In this document: in pieces, positions 14,853 through 46,525 of the stretch
Position numbering within the stretch: position 1 is the first letter of the stretch
How the letters are laid out: the number at the start of each line of letters is the position of its first letter
Source of the DNA: Deltaproteobacteria bacterium
GTDB lineage: Bacteria; Myxococcota_A; UBA9042; PHBI01
NCBI GenBank assembly: GCA_006226565.1
Contig: SBGO01000716.1
Location: forward strand, 307 to 64,306
DNA length: 64,000 nt
Direction: 5' to 3'
Translations under genes and position numbers: made by a program
The notes under the pieces: generated by a model
Seen by the model: only the letters and a program-made list of their open reading frames with translations
The model's database searches: none
What the model was told of the DNA's origin: nothing

Positions 14853-15085
14853 CGCAAAGGCACGGCGTGACCAACGCCTCGACGCGAGGGCAGGGGACGG
14901 GTGCAACTCGGGGGCAGCAAGGAACATAGAACGACACAGTATCTCAAAGGGAGCGCCCGACGGGCTGCAGAATGGGAGCCCACCGTCACCATGTTAGGAG
15001 CGGTTTCCGGACACGCTGTCGTGCGCCATGACGCGGGCGTGTGATATCGCTACAAGGTGCGTCGATCACGCCTGCACGGGAGCTC

Positions 15086-18000: not shown

Positions 18001-18697
18001 GAAGGGCCTCGTGCGCCGCCCGGCACTAACGGGGTTGAGTCTTGGGGACATCACGCGGCTCCCGCAGCACAGCGGGAGCCTCAATGTTCTCCTCGTCGTG
18101 AACCCAACGGAGGACCTCGCCGCGACTGAAGTTGAGGGCGACGCCGTGAAGCGTGCCCTTCTGGCGATGGGCGAGAGCATCGTGAGGGTCACCGAGCTGC
18201 GCGGACCGGAGGCCACGAAGGAACGCGTATTGGCCGCGCTGACGGAGCCGACTCTCGACGTCCTCCACTACAGCGGCCACGCTTTCTACGACGGCCCAGG
18301 GCCGGACGGCAGCGGGCTCTGGTGCTCGAGCCCGACAGGCCCCACGAAGCTCCTACTGGTGGATATCGCCCAGGAGCGAATCACGCCACGCATCACGTTC
18401 TTCAATGGCTGCCAGTCCGCGCGCCTCAGAAATCGAACCGCTGCCGAATCCGCGCGGGCCTTCGCCGAGTTCTTCCTCCGAAGTGGCGTCGAAGCCTACA
18501 TCGGCACCACGTGGCCCGTCGCTGACGACGCCGCAGCCTCGTTCGCAACGTCGGTGTACGCCGAACTTGCGGGAGGCGCGACGCTCGACGCTGCGGTACG
18601 CTCCGCCCGTCAGCAACTAGCTGTGAACGGCGAGCCCGACTGGGCCAACTACGTTCTCTATGGAGATGGGAGCTTTCGCCTGGTGACGTCGCGGTGA
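15086..18697 (+). CDS. Multidomain TIR plus LOG/SLOG-like plus CHAT (caspase-like protease) protein; candidate Thoeris-type sensor-effector
   Basis: (a) TIR: LFISHAKRDLAGTGDVAALIRDF...SWCQRELQWA, preceded by a second TIR-like segment VIQTVYFHPSD. (b) LOG/SLOG Rossmann glycine motifs: IAYGGDFRSSGFDELLAELVVAY and LYVVGGFGGAAALVAELL, resembling LOG VFGGG...G and PGGxGTxEEL. (c) CHAT His-Cys dyad: LDVLHYSGHAFYD and ITFFNGCQSARL. Start chosen at ATG 15086, which has a GGGAG ribosome-binding site, rather than GTG 15041. Confidence 0.75.
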   Translation: MVSRPTLVIQTVYFHPSDRPLAQDLGGLLYEHLTRPRADRLAFGGGIPVLIATDTTHVDTDVASHLLIVPVLGASSFRDEDCRQVAKASVQTWHQHLGPGHVVPVFASANWRSEESEFPGKSVLTRLYSDQDGTWTNTLIEVVLAACRLLAGPALSLRLFISHAKRDLAGTGDVAALIRDFAKSATTGLAFFDTTDLEPGHDLAHQLATATQSGVFVAIHSDTYAARSWCQRELQWAKENALPTLTVEVMKAGEPRSYPYSGNGPTLTWRDSPPTVVLQAFIEWLKAAHFKQEAERMAHDLPQHVVLTRPPELFDLAFGKLRSKGPRVVLHPDPELSANERQVLREARPRLRLVTPRTLFRRLTPSDTVEPQKLPLYRRQIALSLSDSPAANGDAGFTSDHIDDAITYLARSIVAAGGAIAYGGDFRSSGFDELLAELVVAYNESGVDRADYLHSYLAALIPSDKIPEDLALTDCSLNWTPRFAKLARLSWPDEKPGAHRSALYFSDMRRVMGEAIFARVALAGQDRPRSSREPGYGGPFPGVVEEAWRALEQRKPLYVVGGFGGAAALVAELLTSDETPLLMRRETFGGEEYSEFQERCDLVVADPDTVRLGLPPDMAALSAAVRAFGKGHLASDAASLAWNGLTVVENEELFRTRDPVAITQLVMKGLLACVAKEDADKLKIELVCGSITQAEEADAIAIAAFDDVRIGGAGASLDAMLSYLVTSAVAQREQIVDIESPDIDAEWLVIPDLGSVGAGDLSPIPEAIERAAAGVANIATRHQFRRIAVVAFGGTVVDLSIAAERMIRGFRDLHTSTVIQWFELDPGRFDDLRQMLESQDNVALSTRVLPSPPLEETATSRDRDLVVTVRYEGGHLHTTLLPPAGTAAAVACVRPLAMDAFADLAKSDAPRAPTLGQLDAIGEKLAEALFDEAGHDLFGRGRLDRVLVQHDLDSAPLPFEALRVADHRFALEKGLVRRPALTGLSLGDITRLPQHSGSLNVLLVVNPTEDLAATEVEGDAVKRALLAMGESIVRVTELRGPEATKERVLAALTEPTLDVLHYSGHAFYDGPGPDGSGLWCSSPTGPTKLLLVDIAQERITPRITFFNGCQSARLRNRTAAESARAFAEFFLRSGVEAYIGTTWPVADDAAASFATSVYAELAGGATLDAAVRSARQQLAVNGEPDWANYVLYGDGSFRLVTSR

Positions 18698-18837
18698 TGT
18701 CTCGCCAAGGCGTCGGGACTCCGCGACAGGTGGAACCTCGCCGGCTGGCGCGTTGACATGCGTACAACAGCGCTGCAATCTCAGCCTGATGTCGCGCTCC
18801 GGATGCGCGATAGCTCGCGCACGGAAGGGGAAGTACA

Positions 18838-19425
18838 ATGACCACGCGCCACAAGGTGTTCATCAGCTACCATCACGCTCTGGACCAGCAGTACAAGAAC
18901 GACTTGGTCCGTTACTACGCCGACCGGGTGGACGGATTCGTCGATCGGTCCGTCGGGATCGGGGATATCGACGATTCCGTGTCCACAGAGCGCATCGCGC
19001 AACTGATTCGCGAGAAACACCTGAGGGACTCGACGGTGACCGTTGTGCTGATCGGGGCTGGAACGTGGAGACGCAAGCACGTCGATTGGGAGATTTACAG
19101 TAGCCTCCGCGCTACAAGTGCCAGTCCTCGAAGTGGTCTTCTCGGCATCTTGCTCCCTACGTATCAGATTCCATGGGGGGCGACTGGAACCCAACAGTGG
19201 ACCCAGCCTGCTACCGCCTACTACTGGCCGAACAACATCCCTCCGCGTCTCTGGGACAATGTGGCGACGGGCTTCGCAAAGGTGCGGCCGTGGCCTTCGT
19301 CCGGCCAGCAGCTGCAGGAGTGGATTCACGAGGCGTACCTGCGACGTGACGCCAACCCGGCGCCAACACTGGCCCGTGACCGATTCCGAAACAACCGGCC
19401 CGATGTGCAGAGCGGTTGGCAGTAG
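18838..19425 (+). CDS. thsB: ThsB-like TIR-domain protein (DUF1863-type), paralog 1
   Basis: HKVFISYHHALDQQYKND...STVTVVLIGAGTWRRKHVDWEI closely matches Bacillus cereus ThsB (RVFFSFHYQD...TSVTCVLIGSQTFNRRWVRYEI). Confidence 0.75.
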   Translation: MTTRHKVFISYHHALDQQYKNDLVRYYADRVDGFVDRSVGIGDIDDSVSTERIAQLIREKHLRDSTVTVVLIGAGTWRRKHVDWEIYSSLRATSASPRSGLLGILLPTYQIPWGATGTQQWTQPATAYYWPNNIPPRLWDNVATGFAKVRPWPSSGQQLQEWIHEAYLRRDANPAPTLARDRFRNNRPDVQSGWQ

Positions 19426-19448
19426 CCTCGACAAGTCGCAGGGCTGTC

Positions 19449-19991
19449 ATGACCTACCGGCACAAGGTCTTCATCAGCTACCACCACCAGAACGACGAGG
19501 CCTATCGCCACGAGTTCGAGGAGCGATTCGCCTACGAGGGCGGTGTCATTGTCCCGAAGGCGGTCTACGACGGCCAGATAGCCTCAGGATTGAGACCCGA
19601 GACGATTCGGCGAACGATTCGGGAGCGCAACCTGCGCGACAGCACAGTGACCGTCGTCTTGGTCGGTTCGGAGACTTGGAAGCGCAAGCACGTCGACTGG
19701 GAGATCGCGTCCAGTCTACGCAACACGCCGTATAAGAAGGCTTCCGGCCTCCTCGGAATCCTGCTCCCAAGCTACCCAGGGTCCGCCACTGACTACGACC
19801 CGCATACGATTCCGCCACGCCTCTGGGACAACGTCCTATGCGAATACGCGGAGGTTCACGACTGGACGAAGGGCCGATCAATCATGACGCACCTGATTCA
19901 CGCGGCGTTCCTTCGACGCAAACGCCTATTGCCGGCGAAACCCCGGCCCCGGTTCAAAATCAATCGACACGGCGAGCGATGGTGGCCGTGA
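19449..19991 (+). CDS. thsB: ThsB-like TIR-domain protein, paralog 2
   Basis: MTYRHKVFISYHHQNDEAYRHEF...STVTVVLVGSETWKRKHVDWEI. The start is taken at ATG 19449. Confidence 0.75.
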   Translation: MTYRHKVFISYHHQNDEAYRHEFEERFAYEGGVIVPKAVYDGQIASGLRPETIRRTIRERNLRDSTVTVVLVGSETWKRKHVDWEIASSLRNTPYKKASGLLGILLPSYPGSATDYDPHTIPPRLWDNVLCEYAEVHDWTKGRSIMTHLIHAAFLRRKRLLPAKPRPRFKINRHGERWWP

Positions 19992-20164: not shown

Positions 20165-20779
20165 TCAATCACTTGGCTGGTAGAGATTGCAGGCGATATG
20201 CAGGATCTCGACGGTCGCGCCCGACGAGTGTCGGTGCCGGCCAAGGAATGACCACGGTAGGCTGTGGTCCTTCGTCTCTTCTACATCGTGGCAGCCAGCG
20301 GGATCGGTGAAGTGCTGCCGTGTGTCCTTCACCCGCCCTGCGACGTCCGGCTTCTGGCAGAACCCGATGCAAAGGGCCCGCTTCTCGGCACCAGAGCAGT
20401 AGCCGAGGACCTGGGTGGTGCCGTCGCAGTGATACTTGGGCCCGCGGTCCAGCTTGCATTCGCCGAGCATCCTGAAGCGGCCGGCCACGAAGTGGCTGAT
20501 GACCAAGTCGACGTGGCCGTTGACGTGGGGTTCGGCCGTCGTCGGCACACCACCCTGGCTGAGGAGATCGGCGAGGTTGGTGGAGAGCTCCACCTCGCCG
20601 GCCTTCGCCAGCAGCTTTCGACGGTCCTCCAGCTTCTGAAGGCAGTGCCGAACCGCGAGCTCGGCGGCTTCGCAGAAGGCGTCCTCGGTCTGCGCGCACG
20701 CCACGCGGTGGAAGTCGGGCATGAAGGTTTTCACCAGGCCGATGTAGTCCTCGGCCGTCATCCCATCGGGCAGCGTCAT
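20165..20779 (-). CDS. PD-(D/E)xK-fold nuclease-like protein; last gene of the DISARM-like operon, in the position usually held by a PLD nuclease
   Basis: Putative motif GHVDLVISHF...RMLGECKL (D...ExK). Its ATG at 20779 shares one base with the TAA stop of the upstream giant helicase gene. Confidence 0.45.
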   Translation of the reverse strand: MTLPDGMTAEDYIGLVKTFMPDFHRVACAQTEDAFCEAAELAVRHCLQKLEDRRKLLAKAGEVELSTNLADLLSQGGVPTTAEPHVNGHVDLVISHFVAGRFRMLGECKLDRGPKYHCDGTTQVLGYCSGAEKRALCIGFCQKPDVAGRVKDTRQHFTDPAGCHDVEETKDHSLPWSFLGRHRHSSGATVEILHIACNLYQPSD

Positions 20780-23700
20780 TAGCGTCTCCCCTCGCCTCGG
20801 AGCCATTGAACTCCAATCGTTCGCGCTCCGTCGCGCCATCCTTCACCAGCGAGGCCCTCGGCGCCTCCGAGACGATCGAGGGCCTGCTCCCAGGACATGG
20901 GGGCCGGTGGAGTCCGCTTCAGATCCAGGAACACGCGCTTGATGGTGCCAGTCTGGGCCAGTCGTTCGATGGCCAGGAGCGCGTCTCCCTCGTCGGCGTC
21001 AAACTGACCCGCCGCTGCGATGGCGTCGCCCAACGTCAGCGGCTGACCCTCGCTGTCATCGAGGCGTTCGAGAAGCAATCTTGCGATGGCAACAGCCTTC
21101 TCGTTTCGGGTCTGGCGCTTCACCTCGTCCAGCGGCCCGCCGCCGTGTCGGACCCACTCCATCGTCCGCTCCGGCGTTCGCAGATCCCGCGCCGTCAGCT
21201 CCACCACGCGCCACGCGACGCCGCCCTCGCGCAGTGCCCTGCGGATGGCGCGATCCCGCCGCAGGCGGCTGCCGGTATGGAACGCGGCGCCGTCCACATA
21301 GACGAGTACGGTGGTGCCGGTCACGCGGAAGTCGGCCTGGCTTATGGCCGGGCCGTCGAGCTCGGGGCCCACGGGGACCTGCTTCTCGACATTGATGCCG
21401 TGCCGCTCGAACAGGCGCAGGAACTTCAGCTCCAGCGGGGAGCCGACCCCAGCGTCGTAGGCCTCGAGCCATGGCTTGGGGTCGTCGCTGTCGCCCAGCT
21501 CGCCACGAAGCACCTCGGGCGCCGCCAGCGCGAGGCCTTCGAGATCCGGCATGATGTGCGGCCACGACAAGTGCTCGTGGTGGCGCTGGTTGGCGTAGGA
21601 CTTCAGGCAGCGGTAGCAGGCGCTTTCGCACTTCGGGTGGTCGAGATGTTCTATGGTTCGGCGCGCCACCAGATGCAGCTCGTCGACACAGCGATCTAGG
21701 AAGCCGCTGCCGCCAACGGCCGCGTCGATCAGGGTCAGGGCGCCCAGCTTGCGTACACCGTCCTTGCGGCGTTCCTCCCACAGGGGTTCGAGCTCGAACT
21801 CGATCTCCGGCCCGTCGAGCATGTAGAGCTGACGCAGCCCCGTCCGCAGGGCATAGCCCAGCGAGTAGCCCCACCGCTTGTAGTCGGCCTCGTCGTAGTC
21901 GCGCGGCAGGACAACGGTCACGCGGAGAGTCGAGGCGGGCGTAGCGGTCGTGATCGCTGCCGGGATCGGAGGCTGGCCGCTGCGCTGGCAGCCCGAAGCA
22001 TGGCCGAAGGCGTCGGGTCCGCTGGACTTGCGTGCCTTCCTGCGCCCCTTCTTGCCGCTGTCGTCGTCGGGCACCGAGAGCGACCTGCCGCAGGCAGGAC
22101 ACAGGTAGAAGCCGCGCCCGGCGTCGTGCAGCATCGGCTTCCCATTGCGCAGGTCGGCCTCGCTTGGGGGCTTCCACTCGTTCACCCACCGTACGGTCTC
22201 CTCGGCCCGCAGCTCGACGTGCCAGCCGGTGGCCAACCGCCTCCGGGCGACTACACGACCGTCGCGCTGTGGGTGGCAGGTCACCAGCGAGCCTATCGAG
22301 AACCGGTCCTCCTCTTGGAGTACCGGTGTGTCGTCTCGAATTGCCAGGAACCCGCCGTACTCGTGGCCCGGGTAGCCGTGGCCGCCGCCCACCGTGTCGT
22401 CCGAGCCACAGCGTGGGCACGCCGGTGTCTGAGCGTCGTAGCGAAGGTCGCACCCCTTGCAACGCACGTAGATCCAGTCGGGGTCGGTGGACTTCGGGTT
22501 CCAAGGCGAGGCGAGATCCAGACCCACGACGCGCCAGCGGTGGCCACGGGCGTGGACCGGTGCCTCCGGCTGGTACTGCGCGATGCCGAAGCGTCGCGCC
22601 ACCGTGATGGGGTCCTCTTCGTGCTCGTCGCCCCACAGTCGCAACGTGCAGGGCGCTGAAGGGAACTCGTAGCCGGGGAGGATGCCGAACTCGGCGAACC
22701 GGCGCATGGGGTGCCCGCTGCCCCGGTCGTCCGCATCGCCGTCGAAGCGGTCGTCGCGCAAGCCCAGGATCTTCCGCTTCAGGTCCTGAGCGTGCATGGC
22801 CGAGCGGTCGCCCTTGCCCAGTTCGTTCCAGCGGTCGATTGTCTCCTGCAGCTTGAGAATCTGCCGCCGCACGCGGTCGAAGAGGTCCCGGATACGGTCC
22901 GGCAGCCCCTCGAGTACCTGGGCAAGGGCGTCGGGCTCGCCGAGCCCGGCCGGGTCGAGCACGTCGTCGCCCCACGCGTCGCGTGCCAGGTTCACAGCGT
23001 GGGGGAACTGCGCCACGATCGCGGCGATGAGCTCGTCCACTTTCGCCTGGTCGACCTCGCCGCGGATGTTGATGTACTCGGCCATCCGCCCAGCGAGGCC
23101 GGGCTCGGCGGCGCCGAACGCGAGCGCGTGCAGGTGCCGCAGCACCACGTCTCGATTGCCCAGTCCGACGCCGGGTGCTGGCACCTCGCCGGCAATCATC
23201 TCGGCCGGCTTGTCGAAGAAGTACCCATCGTGCGGTGTGCTTCGTGCGTAGCCGAGCACGATGCCAACCCGTGACCGCCGCCCAGCACGGCCCCCACGCT
23301 GCGCATAGTTGTCGGGACGGGGCGGGATGTTGCGCATGACCACTGCGTCGAGGCCCCCCACGTCGATCCCCATCTCCAGGGTGGGCGAGCAGGCCAGAAC
23401 GTTCGTCGCGGCGCGCCGGCTCGTGCCGCTCCACCCCGGCGGCGGCCGGAACCCGGGCGGTGGAGCCTTGAAGTCCTCCTCGAGCTCGATGCGGTCTTCA
23501 CCGGTGATCTGCGCCGTGTGCTCGCCCGCGGAGAGCGGCATCAGGTCGCTCCTCTGGATGCGCTGGACATAGCGATTGCGCTCGATCTCCTCCCTCGGCC
23601 ACTGCTCCAACACGCCGTGGCAGCTCGGGCACGGGCTGCCTGCGGCCGCCCATGGAATACGCACGTTGCAGACGGAGCACCGCATCCGCTCCTCGGGCTT

Positions 23701-26448
23701 GACCAGCTCCAGGCTCACGACGTCGGCGCTGACCTGGAGCAGCCGGCGGCCCTTGCGGTAGCCGTGAAGGGGTTGAGCCACGATGAGCCGCGGGCCACTG
23801 GCCAGCAGATCCAGAAGCTCAACCATCCGCTCGTCATCGGGCTCGGCTCCGCCCATCCGCTTGAGCAGATGCCGCAGCTTCGCCTCGAGGCTCGGGCTGC
23901 GCCCCCCCGCCCTGGGCCTACGCCAGGCGTTGCGCTTGGAGATGCCCTCGGGCACCTCCGAATCGTCGAGCCACCCGAGCGGGGTTCCCTGGCTGTCGCA
24001 CGCGTAGCCCGCGGGGGTCTTGATGCGCCGCTCCCAGTCGGCTGGCCCCCGGAACTCTTCGGGGCAGCTCGGGCTACCCGGATGGTAGCAGAGCATCGGC
24101 CGCGAGAGCGCGGTTCGCCGGCGCATCTCGTCCAGCAGGCAGCGTGAGACGTAGGCGAGCTGACCGGTTGTCAGACCCAGTTTCCCGGCGAGGCCCGCGC
24201 TGTTCTTCGCGATGTGGGCGTCCAGATGCTCGTAGCGCACTCCGACGAGACCCAGGTTGAGCAGCGAGGCGCGGTAGCCCGCGCTGACCGACAGGTCGTC
24301 GAGCAGCGGCGCCTCCTCCCACGCCCGCGCGCGGTCCTGCACGTGCCGCGGCAGGAAGTCGGCGTCGTCGAAGCCCCTGGTGTGGGGGTTGTCTGCTCGC
24401 TCGACTGCCATCGCGACGAGCTTCGTGAGGACCTCGGCGATGGTGGCCCGCTGGCCGGGGGCCTCTTCCAGCACTCGGATGAGCCGACGGCGCATACGGT
24501 CGTAGCGGCCAGCGTAGGTAATGAAGCGAGCCTGGTGTGCGGCGTCCTGGCGGCTGTCCGAGAAGATCAGCAACCGCTCCTTGCCGTCGTGGTCGGCCCG
24601 CTCCGCGTTCTGCACCGCCAGGCCCTCGCAGAGCCCCTCCGCGACCACACGCACGGCTGCCGAGGTGCCCAGCGATACCGGCGTGAGCACGTCATGCGCC
24701 CCGGCGGTCCCGCCGCACACGAGGCAGCGGTTGCGCGCCGGCGCGAGCACCGCCCGCATCGGATACAGAGACTCGTCGACCGAGAACGAGCAGGTGGCGG
24801 GGTCGAAGCTGCCCTCGAGCACGGGCCGTTTCCGCATCTGCTGCTCGACGCCAACCAGCCCCTCGTCGTCGCCCGTCTCGAAGCGCTCGCGGTCGTAGAG
24901 CAGCCACTCGCCGTCGTTGGACCGCGAGGCGTTCGGTCGAAGTGCCTCGCCCTCGGGCCCCGCGTCACCCTCCGCGAACCGTAGGGTGTCGGCGCCGCAC
25001 GAGCGGCAAAGGTAGAGCGGCGCGGCGCTTGCCCCGCACTCGCATTGCTCCTCTCCCATCGGGTACAGGCGCCCGCAGCTCGGATCGACGCAACGCGTGA
25101 AACGCCAGCCGCCGCGAATGAAGCGATGTGCCCGCAGTCGCAACGTGCCGGCGGTCCCGTCCGGCATTGCGGCACCCACGACGAGCGCCGCTTCGATCTC
25201 GCCGCGCAAGCGGTCATGTTCGCTGTCCGCCCGCTCGGGCACGCGCTGGCGCACCTGCTCCACGATCTGAGACACCGACATGGGCCGGCGGGCGAGCAGG
25301 TCGTTCAGCGTCCACAGGATTCCGGCCTGGCGCGCGAGCTCGTCGACCGGCCGCGCGACATCCCCGCCGGCCAGCGCAGCGAGGGCCGCGTGGACAGCCT
25401 CGGCGTCCCCGATGGCGGGCGGAGCGACCTCCGCTGGCGCGCTCGGCCACCGCGCCTCGGCCGGCACCTCGAGGTCGCGAAGGCTCTCGCCGAGCACCTT
25501 GAAGCGCCGCCCGTCGACGCCGGTGAGCTTCATCAGGAACTCGCGGACCGCCTCGTCTCGAAGCGCCCGTACCTCGTCGGGGGCCCGCCCTGTCTCATCC
25601 ACGCTCTTGATCGTGGCCGAGGTCGCCACTGGCAGGGTCTCCGGGAACCGCTGCGCGTCGGCCCGATCATCGGCCTTCCAGTCCTGTCGAGCGTGGCGCA
25701 GGTGGGCACGCAAGCGCCGGAAGAGCAGCGCGATGTTGGCCCCCAGGCTACCGCGATAGGTGTGGACCTCGTCGAGCACCACGAAGCGGCAGCGATGGTT
25801 CGCGAAGAGCGCGTCCCGATCCGCCGGTCGCACGAGCAGGTACTCGAGCATCATGTAGTTGGTCAGCAGGATGTGGGGCGGGTGCTCACGGAGCTGGCGG
25901 CGCTCGTCCTCCTTGGTCGAGCGGTCGTAGCGCGCCACCTTGACGTGGGTGTGCCCCGACGCCTGCAGGTACTGTCGGATGCGCTCCTCTTGGTCGTTGG
26001 CGAGGGCGTTCATCGGGTAGACCAGCAGCGCCGTCAGGCCCGCGTGCCGGAAGCGCACTGAGTCCTCGATTGCATTCTGGATGACCGGCAGCAGGAAGCA
26101 CTCGGTCTTGCCCGAGCCGGTGCCGGTGGTGACGACGAGGGGACCGGGCTCGTCGCCCAGCAGATGGGCGATGGCGTCGCTCTGGTGAAGGTAGGCGGTC
26201 AGGGAGCCGCTGCGCTGCTCCATCACTTTCGCGAGGGCGGCGTCGAGGCCGAGCTCACGCCAGGGCCGACCGCTCTTGAACGGACGGTGGGCCTGGAAGA
26301 ACGGTTCCTGCGCCAGGAAGCCGGCCTCGGTCAGCGCGGCCTCGAGGGCGGCCCGAAGCTGTGGGTCGCGGGCCTGGAACTCGGTCGAGAGGTAGCTCTT
26401 GTACTCGCCGATGACCTGATCGACCACGGTGATGGGGTTCAGGGGCAT
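20779..26448 (-). CDS. Giant DEXH-box helicase with Zn-ribbon/DUF1998-like elements and a C-terminal DUF559-like endonuclease-fold domain; candidate fused DrmA-DrmB (alternatively DruE-like)
   Basis: Walker A VVTTGTGSGKTECF, motif II VVLDEVHTY, motif VI NYAQRGGRAGRR. Several Cys4 clusters (CVDPSCG...CECG, RCSVCNV...CPSCHG, CKGCDLRYDAQTPACPRCG). C-terminus LVYVDGAAFHTGSRLRRDRAIRRALREGGVAWRVV is DUF559-like. The 1889-aa length matches DrmA plus DrmB or DruE. Confidence 0.7.
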   Translation of the reverse strand: MPLNPITVVDQVIGEYKSYLSTEFQARDPQLRAALEAALTEAGFLAQEPFFQAHRPFKSGRPWRELGLDAALAKVMEQRSGSLTAYLHQSDAIAHLLGDEPGPLVVTTGTGSGKTECFLLPVIQNAIEDSVRFRHAGLTALLVYPMNALANDQEERIRQYLQASGHTHVKVARYDRSTKEDERRQLREHPPHILLTNYMMLEYLLVRPADRDALFANHRCRFVVLDEVHTYRGSLGANIALLFRRLRAHLRHARQDWKADDRADAQRFPETLPVATSATIKSVDETGRAPDEVRALRDEAVREFLMKLTGVDGRRFKVLGESLRDLEVPAEARWPSAPAEVAPPAIGDAEAVHAALAALAGGDVARPVDELARQAGILWTLNDLLARRPMSVSQIVEQVRQRVPERADSEHDRLRGEIEAALVVGAAMPDGTAGTLRLRAHRFIRGGWRFTRCVDPSCGRLYPMGEEQCECGASAAPLYLCRSCGADTLRFAEGDAGPEGEALRPNASRSNDGEWLLYDRERFETGDDEGLVGVEQQMRKRPVLEGSFDPATCSFSVDESLYPMRAVLAPARNRCLVCGGTAGAHDVLTPVSLGTSAAVRVVAEGLCEGLAVQNAERADHDGKERLLIFSDSRQDAAHQARFITYAGRYDRMRRRLIRVLEEAPGQRATIAEVLTKLVAMAVERADNPHTRGFDDADFLPRHVQDRARAWEEAPLLDDLSVSAGYRASLLNLGLVGVRYEHLDAHIAKNSAGLAGKLGLTTGQLAYVSRCLLDEMRRRTALSRPMLCYHPGSPSCPEEFRGPADWERRIKTPAGYACDSQGTPLGWLDDSEVPEGISKRNAWRRPRAGGRSPSLEAKLRHLLKRMGGAEPDDERMVELLDLLASGPRLIVAQPLHGYRKGRRLLQVSADVVSLELVKPEERMRCSVCNVRIPWAAAGSPCPSCHGVLEQWPREEIERNRYVQRIQRSDLMPLSAGEHTAQITGEDRIELEEDFKAPPPGFRPPPGWSGTSRRAATNVLACSPTLEMGIDVGGLDAVVMRNIPPRPDNYAQRGGRAGRRSRVGIVLGYARSTPHDGYFFDKPAEMIAGEVPAPGVGLGNRDVVLRHLHALAFGAAEPGLAGRMAEYINIRGEVDQAKVDELIAAIVAQFPHAVNLARDAWGDDVLDPAGLGEPDALAQVLEGLPDRIRDLFDRVRRQILKLQETIDRWNELGKGDRSAMHAQDLKRKILGLRDDRFDGDADDRGSGHPMRRFAEFGILPGYEFPSAPCTLRLWGDEHEEDPITVARRFGIAQYQPEAPVHARGHRWRVVGLDLASPWNPKSTDPDWIYVRCKGCDLRYDAQTPACPRCGSDDTVGGGHGYPGHEYGGFLAIRDDTPVLQEEDRFSIGSLVTCHPQRDGRVVARRRLATGWHVELRAEETVRWVNEWKPPSEADLRNGKPMLHDAGRGFYLCPACGRSLSVPDDDSGKKGRRKARKSSGPDAFGHASGCQRSGQPPIPAAITTATPASTLRVTVVLPRDYDEADYKRWGYSLGYALRTGLRQLYMLDGPEIEFELEPLWEERRKDGVRKLGALTLIDAAVGGSGFLDRCVDELHLVARRTIEHLDHPKCESACYRCLKSYANQRHHEHLSWPHIMPDLEGLALAAPEVLRGELGDSDDPKPWLEAYDAGVGSPLELKFLRLFERHGINVEKQVPVGPELDGPAISQADFRVTGTTVLVYVDGAAFHTGSRLRRDRAIRRALREGGVAWRVVELTARDLRTPERTMEWVRHGGGPLDEVKRQTRNEKAVAIARLLLERLDDSEGQPLTLGDAIAAAGQFDADEGDALLAIERLAQTGTIKRVFLDLKRTPPAPMSWEQALDRLGGAEGLAGEGWRDGARTIGVQWLRGEGRR

Positions 26449-26482
26449 GTCCGCTCCGTGCTTCTAAAGGCCATCTGCGGGC

Positions 26483-26591
26483 TTCTATCGGACACGATCT
26501 CCGGGTGGCCGATAGAAAACCATTGGGCGTTCAGCGGGTTGTGCCCCCGGCGGGGCCTCCTATCGGCCATCGTCGTCCTCGTGGCCGATAG
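26483..26591. promoter_or_regulatory. Two related palindromes upstream of the giant helicase gene: IR1 ttctatcgg-N17-ccgatagaa (26483..26517) and IR2 ctatcggcca-N12-tggccgatag (26560..26591)
   Basis: They share the core CTATCGG(N)CA...TG(G)CCGATAG. IR1 lies 35 to 69 bp upstream of the start at 26448. IR2 begins at the stop codon of the Schlafen-like gene. Confidence 0.4.
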
Positions 26592-28251
26592 CGGAACCAG
26601 GGTGATATCGCCGCCACCGACGCTCGCCAACGGCTCGAATCTCGCCGTCGGACAGCAGCTCGTTCAAGGCCCGGCGGAAGGTGCGAACCGGGATCTCGGG
26701 GCCGACGCGGCGGTGGATCTCCGAGGACGCCGAGCCAGGATAGCGACCGACGTCCTCGACGATGAGCGCCCTGAGCCGGTACGGCTCGATGCGCGTGAGG
26801 GTCGTATGCCCCTCGAGCCCCGCTTCACGCAGCAGTACCGGCTCGACGAAGTAGCGCGTCGCCCGCGTCCGGCCGGTCGTGCGGACGAGCCCCAACTCAA
26901 TGAGGCGGGCGGTCCAGGGCCGCAGGGCACTCGGCTCGGGGAGCTCGAGTGCAGCCGTCAGCTCCACAGCGGAAAGACCCTCGGACTGGCCGAGCAAGCC
27001 CAACGCGATGCGCTCGCGCTGGGTGAGCTGGTGGCGCTGGTCAGCCTCGGCGATGAGCCGGATGACTCCTGGATGCACCACACGCCGCGGCACGGTCACG
27101 TGCACCGAGTCCGCGCCCTCGGCCACGGTCGGCGCGGCCCGCCCGCTGGTGAGCAGGCGGTCGTACATCAGGTCGAAGCCGCTGCCCTCGCGCTCCATCA
27201 GCTTCAGGTCGTGGAAGACGCGGGCGAGGCCGTCGTTGCGCCGCCGGCTGGCGTGCAGGATATTCCGGGGCGTCACGCCCAGCGGCAGCCGGCCGGCGTT
27301 CACCACCTCGAGGTGGGCGGGGTGCAGATTCAGGAAGATGTCGCCACGCTGCGTGTAGGGGCGATGGACCAGCGCGTTGACCAGCAACTCGCGGACCACT
27401 GCCTCTTCGTAGGCCGGCACCCGCATTCGCAGCAATCCATCCGGCAGCTCGTAGGCCTCGCGGAAGTCCGGGATGCCCTGCCAGACGGCGTCGACCAGCT
27501 CGACGGGGGACAGGACGTGGTCGTCCCAGACGTGCTTGTCGATCTTCACACCGCGCTCGTCGTACTTGAGCGCCTGAACGACCGGCGCGGTGCCGAGCCG
27601 GGCCCGGTCGGTGGCCGTGCCCAACAGCAGCACGCCGAGGTTCGTCAGCGTGTCGGCGCTGGCAAGAGCATAGTGGTCAAGCAGCTCGTCGTCAGTCTTC
27701 TCGCGCACAGATGGCTTCACGCGGTCGGACGCCCGCAGCCGGTCGCACAGCGCCGTGCGTTTGAGTGCATCGCATCGTTCGCGGGGGACGCCGAGCGAGG
27801 TCATCGTCTCCCAGGGCACCGAGGGGCGCTCGTTCACGAGACGCAGCACGTCGTCGCCCACCACGGGCCGGCAATCGTCGCCCACGCGCAGGAAGTAGCG
27901 GCCATCGCTGGTAGACGCGACGCCGACGGCACGGGCGACGGTGAGCACGAGGATCTCTCCGCCGCCGTCGCCCCGCTGCACCTCGGCCGCGAGGTCGACG
28001 TTGACGGTCAGCTCGCCGATCCGCTTGCGGACGCGGTCGAGCAGGTCGGCGGGGATTCGCTGGCCGGCCGGAGCCTCCGTCGCGTCGTCTTCGATGCCGA
28101 TGACGATGTGCCCGCCCGCGCCGTTGGCGAAGCACACGCAGTCCTTCGCCAGCTCGCCGAAGTCGGCGGTCTTGCCGGAGACCGTCCGCAGCGACTTGCG
28201 GTCGAACTGCTGGTCCTCTCGGCCTGTGTTCATCGTCGAAGCCTCAGCCAT
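26560..28251 (-). CDS. Schlafen-like ATP-binding protein (AlbA_2 'divergent AAA' domain plus HATPase_c_4)
   Basis: AlbA_2 core FDRKSLRTVSGKTADFGELAKDCVCFANGAGGHIVIGIEDD. HATPase_c_4 motif RELLVNALVHRPYTQRGDIFLNL. Confidence 0.7.
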   Translation of the reverse strand: MAEASTMNTGREDQQFDRKSLRTVSGKTADFGELAKDCVCFANGAGGHIVIGIEDDATEAPAGQRIPADLLDRVRKRIGELTVNVDLAAEVQRGDGGGEILVLTVARAVGVASTSDGRYFLRVGDDCRPVVGDDVLRLVNERPSVPWETMTSLGVPRERCDALKRTALCDRLRASDRVKPSVREKTDDELLDHYALASADTLTNLGVLLLGTATDRARLGTAPVVQALKYDERGVKIDKHVWDDHVLSPVELVDAVWQGIPDFREAYELPDGLLRMRVPAYEEAVVRELLVNALVHRPYTQRGDIFLNLHPAHLEVVNAGRLPLGVTPRNILHASRRRNDGLARVFHDLKLMEREGSGFDLMYDRLLTSGRAAPTVAEGADSVHVTVPRRVVHPGVIRLIAEADQRHQLTQRERIALGLLGQSEGLSAVELTAALELPEPSALRPWTARLIELGLVRTTGRTRATRYFVEPVLLREAGLEGHTTLTRIEPYRLRALIVEDVGRYPGSASSEIHRRVGPEIPVRTFRRALNELLSDGEIRAVGERRWRRYHPGSAIGHEDDDGR

Positions 28252-28270: not shown

Positions 28271-29962
28271 TCATGCTCCCCCGAAGAGAGCGTCGAACTC
28301 CGCTGCGGGTAGATCGAAGAGCCGCAGCGCCGCCTCTCGGATGCGACTGCTGCGCTCCTCGATCAGCGTCGGAAACATCCCCTCCTGCACAAGATCCCAC
28401 GACAGGAGTCGCTCGGCCATGTCCTGCTCCGTGTAGGCCGGCGCATCCCCTCCGGGCTCAGCGAACCACTTGTGGGGCGGCTTGTCCGTCTTGTTGCGGT
28501 TGTCCTTGCCCCGGAGGAAGTGGAAGTTGGCGTAGTGGTTGATCTGCTCCTCCGAAACACCTGCGTCGCGAAGCCGCGCCTTGGGGAAGATGTGATCCCG
28601 CTCCAGCGCGTCCGGGTTCCCGTCGACCGTGATTCCGCCATGAGCAATGTTGAGCGCCAGGTCCACGTGGGCGTTGAGCAGCTGTTCCAGTGTCGTGATG
28701 GGCCGATGGTAGGCCGTCTCGCGCGCGAGCGCCTCGAGCGGGAATGGCCCCTGTCCATGACAGTGTCGCCGGGTGAAGCTGCCCATCCGGGCCTCGGCAC
28801 CGGAGAAAACGCCGCCCATCAGCGCGATGTACAAGCCGGTGACCAGCCGCTTGTTCTCCGCCTGATTCGGCTCCGGGTTGCGCGCCAGATGCACGACAAA
28901 CGGAAGCAGCGTGTTGGTCGCACGACGGAAGAAGCGCGGTGAGTAGATTCGGCAGCGGTCCCGAAGGAGCACGGCCAAGCGATTCCATGCCGGTCCGAGT
29001 AGCTCGAGCGCACCTTCGAGCCTCGGCGCGATGTCTCGGACGCGGTCGCGGTCGGAGACGAGCCGATCGAAGCGAGAGTCTTCTCCGATGAGGAGCAACG
29101 TGGACTTGAGGACCATGTCGCGGTCGATCGGGACCGGTGAGAGCGCTGATGCCTCGTGCGCGACCTTCAGCAGCGCCGGCTGCACGTCGTTCCACGACAG
29201 ATCCAGCAGGCTCATCAGCAGGTCGGACTTCTGCAGCACGAGCCCACCGGAGTTCACCCGGACGAACACCTCGAGGATCTCCTCGATAGGCGTATGGGTC
29301 TGACCGTACTCGTCGATGACGATGACCTGCAGCGGCTTCTCAGAGCGGACGACGGCCGCTGCCCGGTTGACCGTGTCCATCAGCCGCGTCCGGCGGGCCT
29401 CGTCCAGGCTCAGCTCGCTCGCGAGCGTGAAGGCGTAGTTGAGCGCGCGTGTCGGATCGATGGACGCCAGGTCCTCGAACAGGATGAACCGGTGCTTGAC
29501 CTGCCCGTGCTCGTCGACCTCGGCGTTCAGCTGGGTGACCTCGGTGCCCGCCAGAAACCGGAAGTCGTAGTACATGTCGCCGGGGTCCTTGTGGTCGGAC
29601 GACCCGCTCAGGACGTCGAGGTAGGCCCGTCGATGGTCCAGTGAACCTCGGAGCGCGATGTACATCGAGGTCAGCCGCTGCTGGCCGTCCAGGACGTACT
29701 TCAGGCGCCGCTGACCGTCCGCCGTCGGGAAGTTGATGATCGCCTTGTCGCCCGTGAAGACGTCCTTCGTGAACGGCCGGTAGCGTTGTGCCTCCTCCGT
29801 GTCCCACACGAGCAGGGAGCCCAGGGGGAACAGCCGCATCAGGCTGTCCATCAGGCGCAGGATGCGCTCCTCCTGCCACACGAACGGGCGCTGCATCGCC
29901 GGCAGGACGAGCTCGCGGTCGTCCACCATCTGGATCAGCGTGCGAATCACCATCGACTTCAT
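28271..29962 (-). CDS. GmrSD/BrxU-like type IV restriction enzyme (DUF262 ParB-like NTPase plus DUF1524 HNH-like nuclease)
   Basis: DUF262 motifs LPAMQRPFVW and DGQQRLTS. C-terminal DUF1524 motif ERDHIFPKA...HYANFHFLRGKDNRNK. Confidence 0.8.
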   Translation of the reverse strand: MKSMVIRTLIQMVDDRELVLPAMQRPFVWQEERILRLMDSLMRLFPLGSLLVWDTEEAQRYRPFTKDVFTGDKAIINFPTADGQRRLKYVLDGQQRLTSMYIALRGSLDHRRAYLDVLSGSSDHKDPGDMYYDFRFLAGTEVTQLNAEVDEHGQVKHRFILFEDLASIDPTRALNYAFTLASELSLDEARRTRLMDTVNRAAAVVRSEKPLQVIVIDEYGQTHTPIEEILEVFVRVNSGGLVLQKSDLLMSLLDLSWNDVQPALLKVAHEASALSPVPIDRDMVLKSTLLLIGEDSRFDRLVSDRDRVRDIAPRLEGALELLGPAWNRLAVLLRDRCRIYSPRFFRRATNTLLPFVVHLARNPEPNQAENKRLVTGLYIALMGGVFSGAEARMGSFTRRHCHGQGPFPLEALARETAYHRPITTLEQLLNAHVDLALNIAHGGITVDGNPDALERDHIFPKARLRDAGVSEEQINHYANFHFLRGKDNRNKTDKPPHKWFAEPGGDAPAYTEQDMAERLLSWDLVQEGMFPTLIEERSSRIREAALRLFDLPAAEFDALFGGA

Positions 29963-29995: not shown

Positions 29996-32900
29996 TCAGC
30001 CATCGGACCTCCGGTACTTCGTGCCGCGACCCTGCCCCTCGGTCACGGCGCGGCCCTCGTCGACCAAGCGCTTCAGGTGTGGGCGCACGCCGGCGGCATC
30101 GAGGCCGGTGGCCCGCTGGGCGTCGCCCGAGGTGATGAGGCCGCGGGCCTCGAGCAGGCGGGCGATGGTGTCGTAGGCGCCGTCGTCGGAGGGGGGCGCC
30201 GGCCGCGGCGTGGGGCGCGGAGCCGCCGCCGGCTTCTCGGGGGCCGGGCCGAGGCCGGCGAAAAGCGGACCGAGACTCTGGTTCGTCGGCGCGTCCGCGC
30301 CCGCGACGGGCAGGTCGATGACCGGCTTCGGCAGGCACTCGTTGAGCGGGATGTCCCAGTAGGGGTCGTGCTTCTTCGTGAAGGCCTCGAGGCCGATGGC
30401 CTTCAGCTCATCGAAGGCGGACAGACAGAGTTCCGGTGCCTTCGGGTAGCTCTTGTGACTGAACGTCGAGAGCACGTGCTCGTACTGCGCCCGGTCGAGC
30501 CCGTAGGCGTCGGCCACTACTGCGTCGATGGCCGCGCGGACGGCCCAGCGGGCGTCGTCGCCCTCGAGGACGGGCCAGGTGTGCTTCGGCGTCGGCTCGC
30601 GCCACGCGTCGCCGAACTGCTCGGTCCATAGCGGAGCATAGAGCGTATTGACCGCGGAAAGCCTGACCGCTGCGCGCGCTGCGAACGAGCCCGCCATGGC
30701 TGCCAGGTCTGGCCAAGGCAGCGTCCTCAACACGCCAAGGTTGAGGTTCGCCTGGACGACTCGCCGTGCGGCGAAGTCAAACGCGAAGGAGTTGAAACAT
30801 GCAAGAGCCACACAGACATTCGCCGTAGGACGATTGGACGGCTCGTGCTCGACCCGCAGAGAGTCGCCTGCCACCGCGCCAGGTGGAAGAAGTACCGCGC
30901 GGGCAGAGCGCTCATTCGTGGCTACCAATCCGCACGTTGCACGCCACGCGAACCGATAGTGGCAAAGTGCTCCATACAGTCGCGCAATCCTGACATGGTC
31001 GAGCAGAGCCACCTCGGCAACTGCTGGCTCCCACTTCCCCGATTTCTCCGTGGGAAGTGGGTCGTAGTCACGCATACTCTTGCCGCCGTAAAGCGGTGCG
31101 GCGCCAAGTGTCAGCAGCACCCCGATGACATCGGGTCGTCGAGCGTCATCAGCGCCAGGCACGATGTCGCGAAGTCGTCTCAACGCGTCTTTGTCGTTGG
31201 TGCGATGGATGTCGGCAGCCGCCTTGACTCCCAAGTCGCAAATGCCCTGCAACGCATCGAGCCGCGAGGCGAGTTCAAAACCCGTGTTCGCACGGTGGAA
31301 GACCTTTGTGAGATCGCCGTCATCGGAAAGCGCAAATGCAACCGCGGATGGCTCGAATGAAGAAACGCCGCCGCCAGCGAGTAGGTCCTCAAAGCGCTGG
31401 CATTCCATCCCCATGTGGACGGAAACACGCTTGCCGCCGCGAGCACCCACCAAGCATACGAACGAGACACGGGATGACGCGCCGCCGAAGAGCTGGCGCA
31501 GGTTCAAGTAGTGCACGAACCACTGGACGGCCAGGGCCTCGAACAACCAGATTCGCAGAGGCCGGTCGGCCGGGACTTTCGCCAAGCCACCACCGACCAC
31601 GAAGCCGAGGCGCCCCCCCGTTGGACTCAGCACCGCGCTAGAGCGGAGCATGAAGAGGCGGTATAGGTCGGGATCCGACGTCGCGGCCGCGACTTCTTGT
31701 GCGCGAGTCTCCGCGGACACGACGCCGAGAGCTCCGCGCTTCTCCTGCTCGACTACCTTCGCGTACTCCCTCGCCAGCGGATGCGTGTCGAACACCTCTT
31801 CGAGGACGTGATGCTCTGAGCCGACCCCCGCTGACTCCTTGCCTTCCATGTAGGCCGGGTCGATGGCAGCCAAGAAGTCTCGTCGTTCTATCCGCAGCTT
31901 GTCCCAAGGCGGGTTGCCCAGCACAGCATCGAATCCGCTGCGTCCCGGACGACCGTCGAGGAACACCTCGGGGAACGCCAGCTGAAACGCGAGCGACGCT
32001 CGGCCTGTCTCGACCATTCTGAGCAACCGCGGGCGCGGAGCCAGCGCGCGGCCCGCGTCCTCGCCCCGCGCCACCGCCTGTGCTAACGCCTGGTACCCGG
32101 CGTCGTCGCACTCGTCCCCGAGCATTACCCCGCCGCTCCACGCGGCCGCCAGCGTCTTTAGCGGGGCCAACATTGCGTCGAGCTTCTCCTTCGCTGTGCG
32201 CTTCCGCTCCAGGTCGGCCACGTCCTTGCCGACACTGGCATCCAGATCGCGCACATGGACCAACGCCGCAGTCAGTGTGGCATCGAGCAACTCGGTCAGC
32301 CCCTGGGCGAAGAGGTCGTCGAGTTTCTCGCCGCTCTTCGGGTAGGCCAGCAGGTGCTCGAAGAAGGGCCCGGTCAGCGAATCGCCCTGGATGAGCCGGT
32401 GATCCATGAAGGTCAGCGGCAGCCCCTCGGCATAGCTCTCCAGCCACAGCGAGAGCTTGGCCAGCTCGACCGCAAGCGGGTTCTTGTCCACGCCGTAGAG
32501 GCAGTGCACCGCCACCAGGCGCCGGCACAGGGCCTCGGCCTTCCGCTGCGACAGGCCGCTCTCTTCGCCTTCGGCCGCGCGACTCGGCAGGTACGCCACC
32601 AGTTCGTCCTCGGGATCGGGCAGGTCCTCGACGCGCTTGCGTAGCTCGGCGGCGTGGGCGAGCAGCGCCTCGTGCTCGGCCTCCGCGACCTTCGCGGCCT
32701 GCTCCTCGGCCTGCACGGCCAGCTCGTCGCACAAACGGCAGGCCTCGTAGAGCGCTTCGCCGAGGTAGCGGCACGCTTCGACCAGGAAGTGGCCGCTACC
32801 CATGGCAGGGTCCAACACCTTCAGCTCGAGGATGCGGCCGGGGTGCGGGTCCTCCTTGGGGCTGCGCTCGGCGAGCTGGGGCTCGAGCGTCTCCTGCACC

Positions 32901-34473
32901 AGGAAGCGCACGAACGGGTGCGGCGTGTAGTAGCTGCCGCTTGCCTTGCGCCCCAGGCCCACCCGCAGGAAGAAGCGCCCGGCCGGAATCTCCTCGATGA
33001 ACTGGACCTTGGTCTTGCTGCCCGCGGCCGCCTTGCCGCGGCGCTTGGGGGCCTCGTCCTCTTCGCCGTCGTCGGCGTCGTCCGTGTCGCTGTCTTCGTC
33101 GTCGTCCAGGTCGGTTGGCGCGAGGTCGGTGCGGTAGGGCAACCCCTGCGACACCGGCACGACCACCTCGAGTTTGGCCCGTCGCAGGCGGCACATGGCC
33201 TCGGTGGTAATGCCCGGCTCGAGCTCCAGCAGGGCCTCGTAGACGCGGCCAAGATCCTCGACGTCGAGGGCGCCGTAGTGCACGCGCTCGCGTTCTGTCC
33301 TGCCGTCGCCGGGTGTCCACAAGAGCGCGTCGAGCAGGCGGGCCACGCCGCGCTCGCCCCAGGTCAGCCGGTCGAGCAGCGGGGTGGCGTCGCGGCCGAA
33401 GAGCATGCCGCCCAGGGGCCGGATCTCGAGCTCGCTGGAGCTCATGCCATTGGCGAACATCCGCCAGAGCGCGCGCAGGCCGGACTCGAGGAAACCGCCA
33501 CTGTCGGCACCGTCGTCGAGCACCCGCCGCACCAGGCGCGCGAGCGCCGTGTTGGGCGAGTAGGTGTTTCGCCACAGGCTGGTGGCCGCGAAGCTGAAGG
33601 CGCGGGCGGGGTCGGCGGACGACTCCAGCTTGAAGACGAAGAGCAGCCGGTAGACGAGGATCAGGCCCTCGCGCCACAGCGCCCGCGCCAGCTCGCCCGC
33701 GTCGGTCCACTCGGCGCGGACGGCGGCGTTGTCGGGGTGATCCAGCAGCTCCTGCAAGAAGCCCTCGATGGCGCGGCGGGCCTGCAGCCGCAGCTTCTTG
33801 GTGACGGTGCTCTGAGCGAGCCGCGCGGCCTCGGCCAGATCGGGCACCACCGCGACGCCGTCGGGCGAGGCCAGCGCGAGCAGCAGCCGATACGAGTCGG
33901 GGACGCCGCGCGCCGCGCGCCAGCCGCCTGACCGGTCGAGGCGCACGGCGATGTGGCTGTCGGGCCGTGCCGGATCGCAGAGCAGCAGGCGCAGCTCTTC
34001 ACCGTCGGTGAGCAGGCCTACCCGCTCGCCGCTGGCCAGCAGCACGCGCTGGGCCACGCGGCTCGGGCTGAAGCGGTAGGCCCGGCCGCGACGGCTGGGC
34101 GCGTCGAGGTCGGTGCCGAGGCCCACCGACCAGGCGCGCAGCTTGCGCCCGTCCTCCGATGTAAAGAGCCAGCCACCGTCCTCGGGGCCCTCGCGGGTGA
34201 TGACCTCGGCCTGCGACTCGAAGGCGGCGTAGCCCAGGCGCTCGGCGAGGGGCTCGAGGACGTGGCTCGCCACGCGGCGGTCGCCGCCCTGCTCGCCGAG
34301 GGCCCGCAGTTTGCGACGGTAGACGTCCCAGCGGTCCTGGAGCGCGCGCCCCTCGTCGCCCGTGGTCTTCGGCAGCAGCTTGCGTTTGGTCAGCTCGGCC
34401 TCGAGCTGGAACTTGACGAACGGCTCGGGCAGCGCCGGCCCGAAGAAGGTGCAGTCGCGGAGATCGAAGGCCA

Positions 34474-34474
<1 letters not shown>
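29996..34474 (-). CDS. Large N6-adenine DNA methyltransferase (gamma-class, Eco57I/DrmMI/PglX-like), about 1490 aa
   Basis: Motif I VLDPAMGSGHFLVEA and motif IV VLGNPPW, with YYTPHPFVRFLV before motif I. Start assigned to ATG 34474 (MAFDLRDC), which overlaps the SNF2 stop as TGATG. The ORF-track start at 34690 is an Arg/Pro-rich extension. Confidence 0.75.
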
Positions 34475-37887
<3,413 letters not shown>

Positions 37888-41371: not shown

Positions 41372-41423
41372 GGGCAGCGGCGATGAGCTACGGCAGAGGC
41401 ATCGACGTCCGGGGAGGCGAGCG

Positions 41424-46510: not shown

Positions 46511-46525
46511 ATCGTGGGTTGAAGC

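Follow-up and report, generated by a model that had tools for sequence, protein, structure and literature searches.

We analysed a 64,000-nucleotide stretch of DNA from a Deltaproteobacteria bacterium (contig SBGO01000716.1, positions 307 to 64,306; hereafter the window) and focused on an array of related inverted repeats that lies between a Schlafen-like gene (pSlfn) and a large helicase gene of a defence operon. The window has a G+C content of 68% and the region of interest is on its minus strand. The array takes in the 3'-terminal 32 nt of pSlfn and stops 14 nt short of the helicase start codon, with the methylase/GmrSD/pSlfn half of the operon on one side and the helicase half on the other. 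Our preferred interpretation, to which we assign a probability of about 0.62, is that it consists of five half-sites of the form TCTAWNGGMCA which would be the cognate double-stranded DNA sites of the C-terminal winged helix of the adjacent protein, a pSlfn of the HisKinase-wHTH (winged helix-turn-helix) type, and which would likely set the output of the helicase gene. Binding by the adjacent protein is well supported by sequence comparison, and control of helicase expression is plausible. The array has a regular anatomy, is conserved in homologous loci, is confined to one spot of the window and co-varies with the recognition helix of the protein.

Anatomy and conservation of the half-site array

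An earlier note on this DNA had described two palindromes, IR1 and IR2, and re-reading the sequence confirmed both, together with their common half-site and their separation of 75 nt. IR1 (26483-26517) is formed by ttctatcgg (26483-26491), 17 intervening nucleotides and ccgatagaa (26509-26517), and its arms can be extended to 13 nt with one mismatch, leaving a loop of 9 nt. IR2 (26560-26591) has perfect arms of 10 nt, ctatcggcca (26560-26569) and tggccgatag (26582-26591), around 12 nt. The whole hairpins are direct repeats of each other (repeat families D1 and D3). The earlier note had placed IR2, like IR1, in the 111-nt gap between the two genes, which has to be corrected: the gap spans 26449-26559, and IR2 makes up the final 32 nt of the Schlafen-like open reading frame (ORF) at 26560-28251 on the minus strand, where it encodes the tail ..AIGHEDDDGR and its right arm finishes in the stop codon TAG. 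With the genes on the minus strand, the order along the mRNA is IR2, IR1, a lone half-site and the helicase start.

The five half-sites can be assigned individually. L1 (26582..26592, minus strand; GCTATCGGCCA on the mRNA strand) lies within the 3' end of the Schlafen-like gene and encodes ..A-I-G-H; in homologous loci this position, about 24 nt ahead of the stop, is a half-site too. R1 (26559..26569, plus strand; CCTATCGGCCA on the plus strand and TGGCCGATAGG on the mRNA strand) holds the stop codon TAG (26560-26562) together with the Gly-Arg codons GGC CGA. The distal arm of IR1 is L2 (26506..26516, minus strand; TCTATCGGCCA on the mRNA strand) and its proximal arm is R2 (26484..26494, plus strand; TCTATCGGACA), in which A for C is the sole difference from the other arms. 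The lone fifth half-site, R3 (26463..26473, plus strand; TCTAAAGGCCA, family D1), lies 21 nt away from R2 and adjoins a GGAG ribosome-binding site, its end being 14 nt ahead of the helicase ATG. Along the mRNA strand the array thus reads L1 forward, R1 reverse, L2 forward, R2 reverse and R3 reverse.

The search for the half-site across the island proposed in the earlier note was carried out on the window, where CTATCGG occurs seven times in 64 kb, with four of these copies inside a single stretch of 107 nt. The family pattern TCTAWNGGMCA has three exact matches in the whole window, all within 26463-26516, and both IR2 arms match it with one mismatch. The half-sites of the window are confined to 26463-26592. 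A chance origin of this cluster is excluded.

Homologues of the pSlfn protein number in the thousands. For comparison we used 80 genome loci with 60-86% identical proteins, which span Myxococcota, Acidobacteriota, Planctomycetota, Cyanobacteria, Beta- and Gammaproteobacteria and others, plus several metagenome loci. The earlier note had allowed that the motifs might not be conserved in homologous loci, but one arrangement is seen repeatedly: the stop codon or its vicinity holds a first site, after which come a spacer whose motif resembles the binding site of IHF, a palindrome and often an extra half-site about 21 nt further on. A perfect 9/9 palindrome is found 20-135 nt past the stop in 42 of 83 non-redundant loci, compared with 10 of 415 internal coding controls. 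The palindrome arm occurs again, at a match of at least 8/9, in the last 45 nt of the same gene in 43/83 loci; the corresponding controls gave 0/83 in an internal stretch and 15% for non-cognate pairs, in which the arms came from other loci.

Spacing was counted in the 41 loci with registrable sites. Inverted pairs are 20-21 nt apart from centre to centre in 44 of 52 cases, R1 and L2 are separated by 54-57 nt, and the distance from L1 to L2 is either 74-77 or 87-90 nt. Oriented like R2, the extra half-site follows R2 after 21-23 nt in 10 loci and after 13-14 nt in 5, and it abuts the hsdR start in a beta-proteobacterial clade as it does the helicase start in the window. The first site is a lone half-site without a partner in 21 of these loci. 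The half-site sequence differs among loci and its copies inside one locus agree, with CTATCGGCCA in the relatives of the window and CTATCGACCA, TTCTGGCCA, CTCTCGGCCA, TAAAGGACA, TATCTGCCA and others elsewhere. When the flanks of 42 loci were examined (up to 8 kb on each side), exact 9-mers of the own locus were found 6 times outside the array for 4.3 expected, and a check for dispersed repeats revealed no further copy of the array in these flanks or in the 64-kb window.

The spacer motif of the window, CAACCCGCTGAAC (26530..26542, minus strand), agrees with YAANNNNTTGATW, the reverse complement of the IHF consensus, at six of the nine specified positions. Matches to YAANNNNTTGATW at seven or more of the nine positions are found in 26/40 loci, compared with 18% of shuffles, and in all but two of these 26 loci (24) the motif YAAC-N4-YTGAW begins 30-31 nt ahead of the centre of L2. 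An IHF-type bend may lie between both palindromes.

The overlap of the first site with the gene is reflected in the protein. Among the 120 best homologues, 62 end in x(I/V/L)(G/D)(H/Q/Y/R)-xxxx-G(R/Q) directly before the stop, with 30 different loop tetrapeptides between them. In 15 non-redundant loci with ..GR tails, the final Arg codon is CGA in 15/15, compared with 9.6% of the Arg codons elsewhere in the same genes, and the stop codon is TAG in 14 of the 15, whereas homologues that end in other tails use it in 24% of cases. The first half-site of some loci comes after, not before, the stop. The forced CGA and TAG, the variable loop and a tail predicted to be disordered (residues 555-563, with pLDDT below 50 in an AlphaFold2 model) argue that the conserved peptide tail is a by-product of the DNA element. 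Selection at the DNA level thus explains the odd conserved C-terminal peptide ..IG[HQ]xxxxGR.

The gene that follows the array varies among loci. The helicase is found downstream in few loci only; the recognisable next gene is most often hsdR, a type I restriction-modification (R-M) gene, as in L055 (hsdM-hsdS-x-pSlfn-[array]-hsdR), and others are the DISARM genes drmA-drmB-drmC (L016), a PLD-helicase or hsdM. One hsdM example came from our search in a plasmid collection, which contained no close relative of the window; the only hit was an IncU plasmid of Aeromonas, where a distant homologue has an array of its own ahead of hsdM. Since the next gene changes, the array travels with the Schlafen gene and not with the helicase. 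In several systems this cassette stands between modification genes and helicase/nuclease genes.

A few loci depart from the common layout. L030 is the only one of 42 loci with an extra cognate palindrome (TAAAGGACA) ahead of pSlfn itself, about 1741 and 1707 nt before the stop and 50-90 nt upstream of the pSlfn start, which hints at autoregulation in that lineage. In the pSlfn-hsdR gap of the beta-proteobacterial loci L048-L083, the palindrome is of the TAAAGGACA type and the third half-site, TTGTCC(A/G)ATAGAA, is of the window type. The window shows the reverse, with palindromes of the CTATCGG type and a third site of the TAAAGG type. Two half-site flavours therefore coexist in one array, and they might be read by the two winged helices. 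Finally, L002 (9509-12007; also L003 and L004) carries an 86% identical pSlfn gene and both palindromes, but of the helicase no more than the first 67 codons are left. An HTH_17 gene and a 78-aa ORF stand ahead of pSlfn, and the insertion point is between a cluster of microcompartment genes and the division and cell wall genes ftsZ/ftsA/murB. L002 is what remains of a decayed copy of the system. L088 resembles it in its HTH_17/78-aa neighbourhood, there with HTH_17 on the other strand.

Co-variation of the half-site with the last winged helix of pSlfn

The pSlfn gene (26560..28251, minus strand) encodes a 563-aa protein with an AlbA_2 nuclease core (SLFN_AlbA_2; PF04326, 5e-12), an HATPase_c_4 domain (PF13749, 1.6e-13) and tandem winged helices. 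The database copy of the protein, P0001, is 100% identical over its 557 aa and begins at Met7; NCBIfam offers no name for the protein. Residues E12, D17 and K19 of the catalytic motif E12-x4-D17-x-K19 are invariant or nearly so among homologues, and the motif is intact in the window. With its Schlafen core motif, GHKL/HisKinase-like ATPase and helix-turn-helix (HTH) domains, the protein belongs to the pSlfn HisKinase-HTH family of COG2865-type 'ATP-binding protein / RecG-like' proteins, with which it shares the Schlafen/AlbA_2 core motif E-x4-(E/D)-x-K, the HATPase_c_4 domain and the C-terminal winged helices.

An AlphaFold2 model of the protein (mean pLDDT 73.7, with block means of 71-90 over residues 491-550) places the two winged helices at residues 394-476 and 490-551. 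The last of them, coded at 26599..26784 on the minus strand, comprises predicted helices at 490-503 and 509-516, a recognition helix at 522-535 (VRTFRRALNELLSD, coded at 26647-26688) and wing strands at 538-541 and 548-551 around RRWRR, within a wing that carries RRWRRY. In a fold search the nuclease core matched SLFN13, SLFN11, SLFN5 and SLFN14, and the tandem winged helices matched SelB and ScpB. The sole solved relative is the uncharacterised structure 3LMM.

The co-variation test drew on the 40 loci whose sites are well defined. At the start of the recognition helix, residue 523 is Arg in all 18 loci with C at half-site base 7 and Lys in all 22 loci with A at that base. A simple neighbour-joining tree restricted to residues 20-480 requires six changes of residue 523 and six of base 7, and the two stay perfectly linked throughout. 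Other positions follow the sites as well: the three loci in which GACC replaces GGCC in the half-site core all have Lys at residue 526, and a wing change from RWRRY to RARRF accompanies sites of the TTCTGG type. The last winged helix and the downstream sites thus switch together, or are exchanged as one unit, as expected if this winged helix reads the sites. Arginine paired with G:C and lysine paired with A:T are common protein-DNA contacts, and R523 with C and K523 with A are in line with them. The earlier note had named the AlbA_2 protein among the possible binders, and it is now the best candidate, with a half-site that tracks the recognition helix in 40/40 loci.

If this assignment is right, the array offers a concrete candidate DNA target for the HTH domains of this protein class, namely a half-site array at the 3' end of its own gene. 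It would also come with a predicted reading code, in which R523 goes with C, K523 with A, and wing changes go with the outer bases. Together with the conserved layout around an IHF-like bend, this target and code make the function of the domain testable. The result also leads one to ask for what reason so many different operons contain a nuclease gene with a docking site of its own.

Possible function of the array and competing explanations

The complex might be built as follows. Each inverted pair, with half-site centres separated by two helical turns, would hold a dimer of pSlfn; bending of the 44-nt spacer at its IHF-like motif would join the two palindromes; and through the extra half-site the complex would reach as far as the ribosome-binding site of the following gene. 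Most likely, the bound complex would then act as a protein roadblock or occlude a weak promoter, and would set the amount of helicase. The earlier note had viewed IR1 and IR2 as paired operators of a dimeric regulator. This view holds insofar as the elements are, judging from their conservation, probably protein-binding sites of one specificity; it does not hold for their number, which is five half-sites, nor for their linkage, which is to the Schlafen gene and not to the helicase. The proposed control of the lower half of the operon is an inference: the sites also stand before hsdR, hsdM or drmA, or where no co-directional defence gene follows, and a sigma-70-like promoter was not detected in the gap.

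Several observations weigh against pSlfn binding with helicase control. The co-variation rests on related sequences and on a simple neighbour-joining tree. The array is intact without a co-directional defence gene downstream in L086, where a solitary pSlfn gene faces a converging gene 866 nt away, and in L087, where pSlfn is the last gene of a type I R-M operon, so that control of a downstream gene cannot be its sole role. Locus L005, with an 84% identical protein in the same type of operon, has no canonical array; its gap, its palindrome (TGTCACTT-N7-AAGTGACA) and its recognition helix all differ. Neither a sigma-70-like promoter nor an intrinsic terminator was detected in the window gap or in two AT-richer gaps (L048 and L072), which leaves the regulatory mechanism unspecified. 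Lastly, the same palindrome occurs in phage-like iteron arrays without any pSlfn homologue, and would there be bound by another protein with the same specificity or represent targets of the Schlafen winged helix on mobile DNA.

Other candidate elements were considered and rejected. In the beta-proteobacterial clade a -35/-10 pair composed by eye of the conserved elements TTGATT and TATAAA has a spacing of 12-14 nt, which is wrong for sigma-70, and the half-site arms do not fit the consensus of a sigma-54 -24/-12 site. An integron attC site is not compatible with a spacer CAAC that does not fit RYYYAAC, nor with the same gene being always attached. Programmed inversion would require longer arms than these, and no recombinase is present.

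A serious rival, possible although we consider it unlikely, is that the pSlfn-bound array mainly controls the nuclease itself. It would then be a docking or loading site in cis, similar to parS next to parB, that tethers the tRNase, holds it inactive or loads the GHKL-type ATPase onto DNA. Such a role would accommodate arrays kept intact without a following defence gene, the overlap with the 3' end of the gene, which makes gene and site inseparable, and the exchange of winged helix and sites as a unit between protein backbones. Two repeat blocks around an IHF-like motif just after the gene also recall P1 parS. The catalytic E-x4-D-x-K is intact, and two reports (PMC13056530, PMC13462974) regard pSlfn proteins as toxic tRNase effectors with fused domains as sensors. 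However, the link from DNA binding to nuclease activity is purely proposed, five half-sites could hold only a few molecules, and in several contexts the last half-site sits tight on the ribosome-binding site of the next gene, which fits regulation better. A more speculative version, in which we place little confidence, treats the array as a DNA ligand welded to a toxic tRNase gene. The protein would be silent on its own cassette and be released, or re-assembled in active form, if the locus were lost, if host DNA were degraded or if incoming DNA with the same half-sites competed for it; phage-like contigs with iteron arrays of the identical 10-mer do exist. If this were true, the winged helix would be the long-sought sensor of the second commonest bacterial Schlafen class, and the cassette a DNA 'antitoxin' or reference site.

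We regard it as improbable that the sites belong to another factor or are remnants of a mobile element, be they iterons or a centromere, recombination sites of a Schlafen cassette or targets of an unlinked host regulator. The same 10-mer is indeed found in phage-contig arrays (three direct and one inverted copy) and in a 17-copy array, all without a pSlfn gene, and pSlfn plus array is inserted in many operons and follows an HTH_17 gene in L002 and L088. The iteron arrays are nevertheless spaced differently (11-12 nt, as direct repeats) and have no winged-helix homologue nearby, the cassette of the window comes without a recombinase, Rep or Par gene, and six linked switches with the adjacent protein would be unexpected for an unlinked factor. 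RNA hairpins in the polycistronic transcript, acting as an attenuator or a terminator without U-tract, as a processing site or as a 3' stabiliser of the upstream mRNA, are in our view very unlikely, and the suggestion in the earlier note that IR2 is an attenuator or terminator is disfavoured with them. Both palindromes are indeed predicted to form hairpins in RNA from the minus strand, folding of the 171-nt region is somewhat more favourable than that of shuffles (z = -1.97), and compensatory arm changes occur between loci. Yet no U-tract or T-run follows either palindrome in a terminator scan of the window gap, an Rfam scan of the region gave nothing better than E = 4.9, which is chance level, and the first half-site is without partner in about half of the 41 registered loci, as is the extra half-site at a fixed 21-23 nt in many. 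Within a locus the arms of the two hairpins are identical in sequence, a feature that hairpins as such would not require; the 90 non-Watson-Crick arm positions divide into 13 with sense G·U, 20 with antisense G·U and 57 with neither, a random ratio; and half-site bases track the protein recognition helix. Chance palindromes or a recent functionless local duplication, for which one may point to the richness of high-GC DNA in short inverted repeats and to the many weak ones in the window, are refuted by the clustering, the layout kept over many phyla and the forced rare codons, and have a negligible probability.

Several known systems resemble the array proposed here. C proteins of type II R-M systems are small regulators with an Xre-type HTH that bind C-boxes upstream of their own gene and time or limit the destructive component. 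As in these systems, a putative DNA-binding protein is encoded in the defence operon and the proposed operators are paired and palindromic. Unlike C proteins, pSlfn is a 563-aa nuclease-ATPase fusion with sites at or after the 3' end of its own gene and half-sites 21 nt apart; no Xre-type HTH family is among its Pfam matches, and its DNA-binding region is modelled as winged helices. In P1 parS, repeats just after a gene are read by the product of that gene and form two blocks around an IHF-type bend. In contrast to P1 parS/parB, pSlfn lacks ParA and ParB domains and a replicon context, and partition is not suggested. A Rho-independent terminator likewise has a GC-rich inverted repeat at a gene end, but the array differs from it by the missing U-tract, the lone half-sites and the absence of a G·U signal. 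BrxR/CapW (WYL) regulators travel with many defence systems and bind inverted repeats beside their own gene (10.1101/2022.01.04.474952; PMC13622015). The pSlfn protein has no WYL match in Pfam, and the operators of BrxR/CapW are in the promoter upstream of the regulator gene, a position where pSlfn has a palindrome in one locus of 42 (L030).

Schlafen-HisKinase-HTH proteins are reported to constitute 19.2% of 5,930 prokaryotic Schlafens, with the fused domains proposed to be sensors (PMC13056530; 10.1101/2025.07.24.666596), and to be widely linked to BREX-related and R-M systems (PMC12839542, PMC13462974). PMC13462974 links ATPase/DNA-binding Schlafens to R-M systems and describes their activation as unknown, and tRNA cleavage and anti-phage activity are reported only for other pSlfn architectures (PMC13056530, PMC13462974). 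The accessible portions of the published pSlfn papers treat the fused domains as undefined sensors and describe no DNA target, and the texts returned by a full-text literature search contain, as far as accessible, no description of these DNA sites; the site array is the addition made here. The HisKinase-HTH Schlafens are the second most frequent architecture of this defence family and occur in type I R-M, BREX-related and DISARM-like systems. The best description is a cognate binding-site array with three unusual traits: an overlap with the 3' end of the gene for its proposed binder, a defence nuclease as this binder, and movement together with the domain that would read it.

Similar palindromes elsewhere and neighbouring genes

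The palindrome and its half-sites were also found away from Schlafen genes. Three viral contigs (L090:265-298, L091:8364-8410 and L092:1123-1176) and six metagenome contigs (L125, L163, L171, L174, L136 and L161) carry arrays of the 10-mer CT(A/C)TCGGCCA, in three direct copies and one inverted, at a spacing of 11-12 nt, which is 12 nt in the three viral contigs. One of these arrays comes just after a 130-aa ORF beside DNA polymerase A genes and another about 450 nt upstream of a phage portal gene; a search with the winged helix alone found neither a pSlfn nor a winged-helix homologue near the iteron arrays. At the start of a metagenome contig, beside a DsbA-like gene, L128 (200-560) contains about three tandem copies of a 126-bp unit with 17 half-sites of the types TATCGGCCA and TAACGGCCA in both orientations, and another metagenome locus has eight half-sites at a spacing of about 21 nt. 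L133 (5150-5450) and five relatives share an element of about 200 nt with a promoter-like start (TTGACC...TAGTA) and two hairpins, the last stem of which, CCCCTATCGGCCA-N9-TGGCCGATAGGGG, precedes a T-run. The element resembles a gene for a small RNA that has an intrinsic terminator; its match to the array stem is coincidental.

A scan of viral sequences with the TAAAGGACA palindrome gave 29 matches, none of them with a pSlfn homologue. Most extend into perfect hairpins of greater length, in several cases with a T-run behind them, and have the appearance of terminator hairpins that match by chance. The corresponding scan of metagenomes with the palindrome of the window gave 54 matches, of which 41 are without a pSlfn homologue; these comprise about 10 small-RNA-like terminators, about 7 decayed or remote pSlfn C-termini and about 12 iteron-like arrays, the rest being single hairpins.

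The operon around the array partly recalls DISARM, which consists of DrmD/DrmMI, the helicase DrmA, the DUF1998 protein DrmB and the PLD protein DrmC: a DrmD-like protein, a DrmMI-like protein and a fusion of helicase and MZB are present. Its members are a DrmD-like SNF2 helicase (34474-37887), a DrmMI-like methyltransferase (29996-34690), a GmrSD_N/HEC-05 protein (28271-29962), pSlfn and the helicase downstream of the array (20779..26448, minus strand). This last protein is a DEAD/Helicase_C/MZB (DUF1998) helicase of 1889 aa that resembles DruE and a DrmA-DrmB fusion and obtains its best scores with DruE models. The ORF that follows it (20165-20839, minus strand; 224 aa) occupies the slot of DrmC in DISARM and gave no PLD match, nor any other match in Pfam or NCBIfam; a 204-aa gene is found at the equivalent place in L001.

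Two further gene groups lie on the plus strand. At 15041-19991, a 1218-aa TIR-SLOG(LD_cluster2)-CHAT protein is followed by two ThsB-type TIR proteins; these genes are convergent with the helicase operon and give the impression of a second defence system in the island. At 40833-49135, a Ser/Thr kinase gene and a TPR/PEGA gene are followed by three successive paralogues of 1059, 840 and 869 aa, all of which combine a proprotein-convertase P domain with an FGE-sulfatase domain at the C-terminus. Two direct copies of CTATCGG, at 42120 and 42147, are inside the gene for the 1059-aa paralogue and look like chance occurrences.

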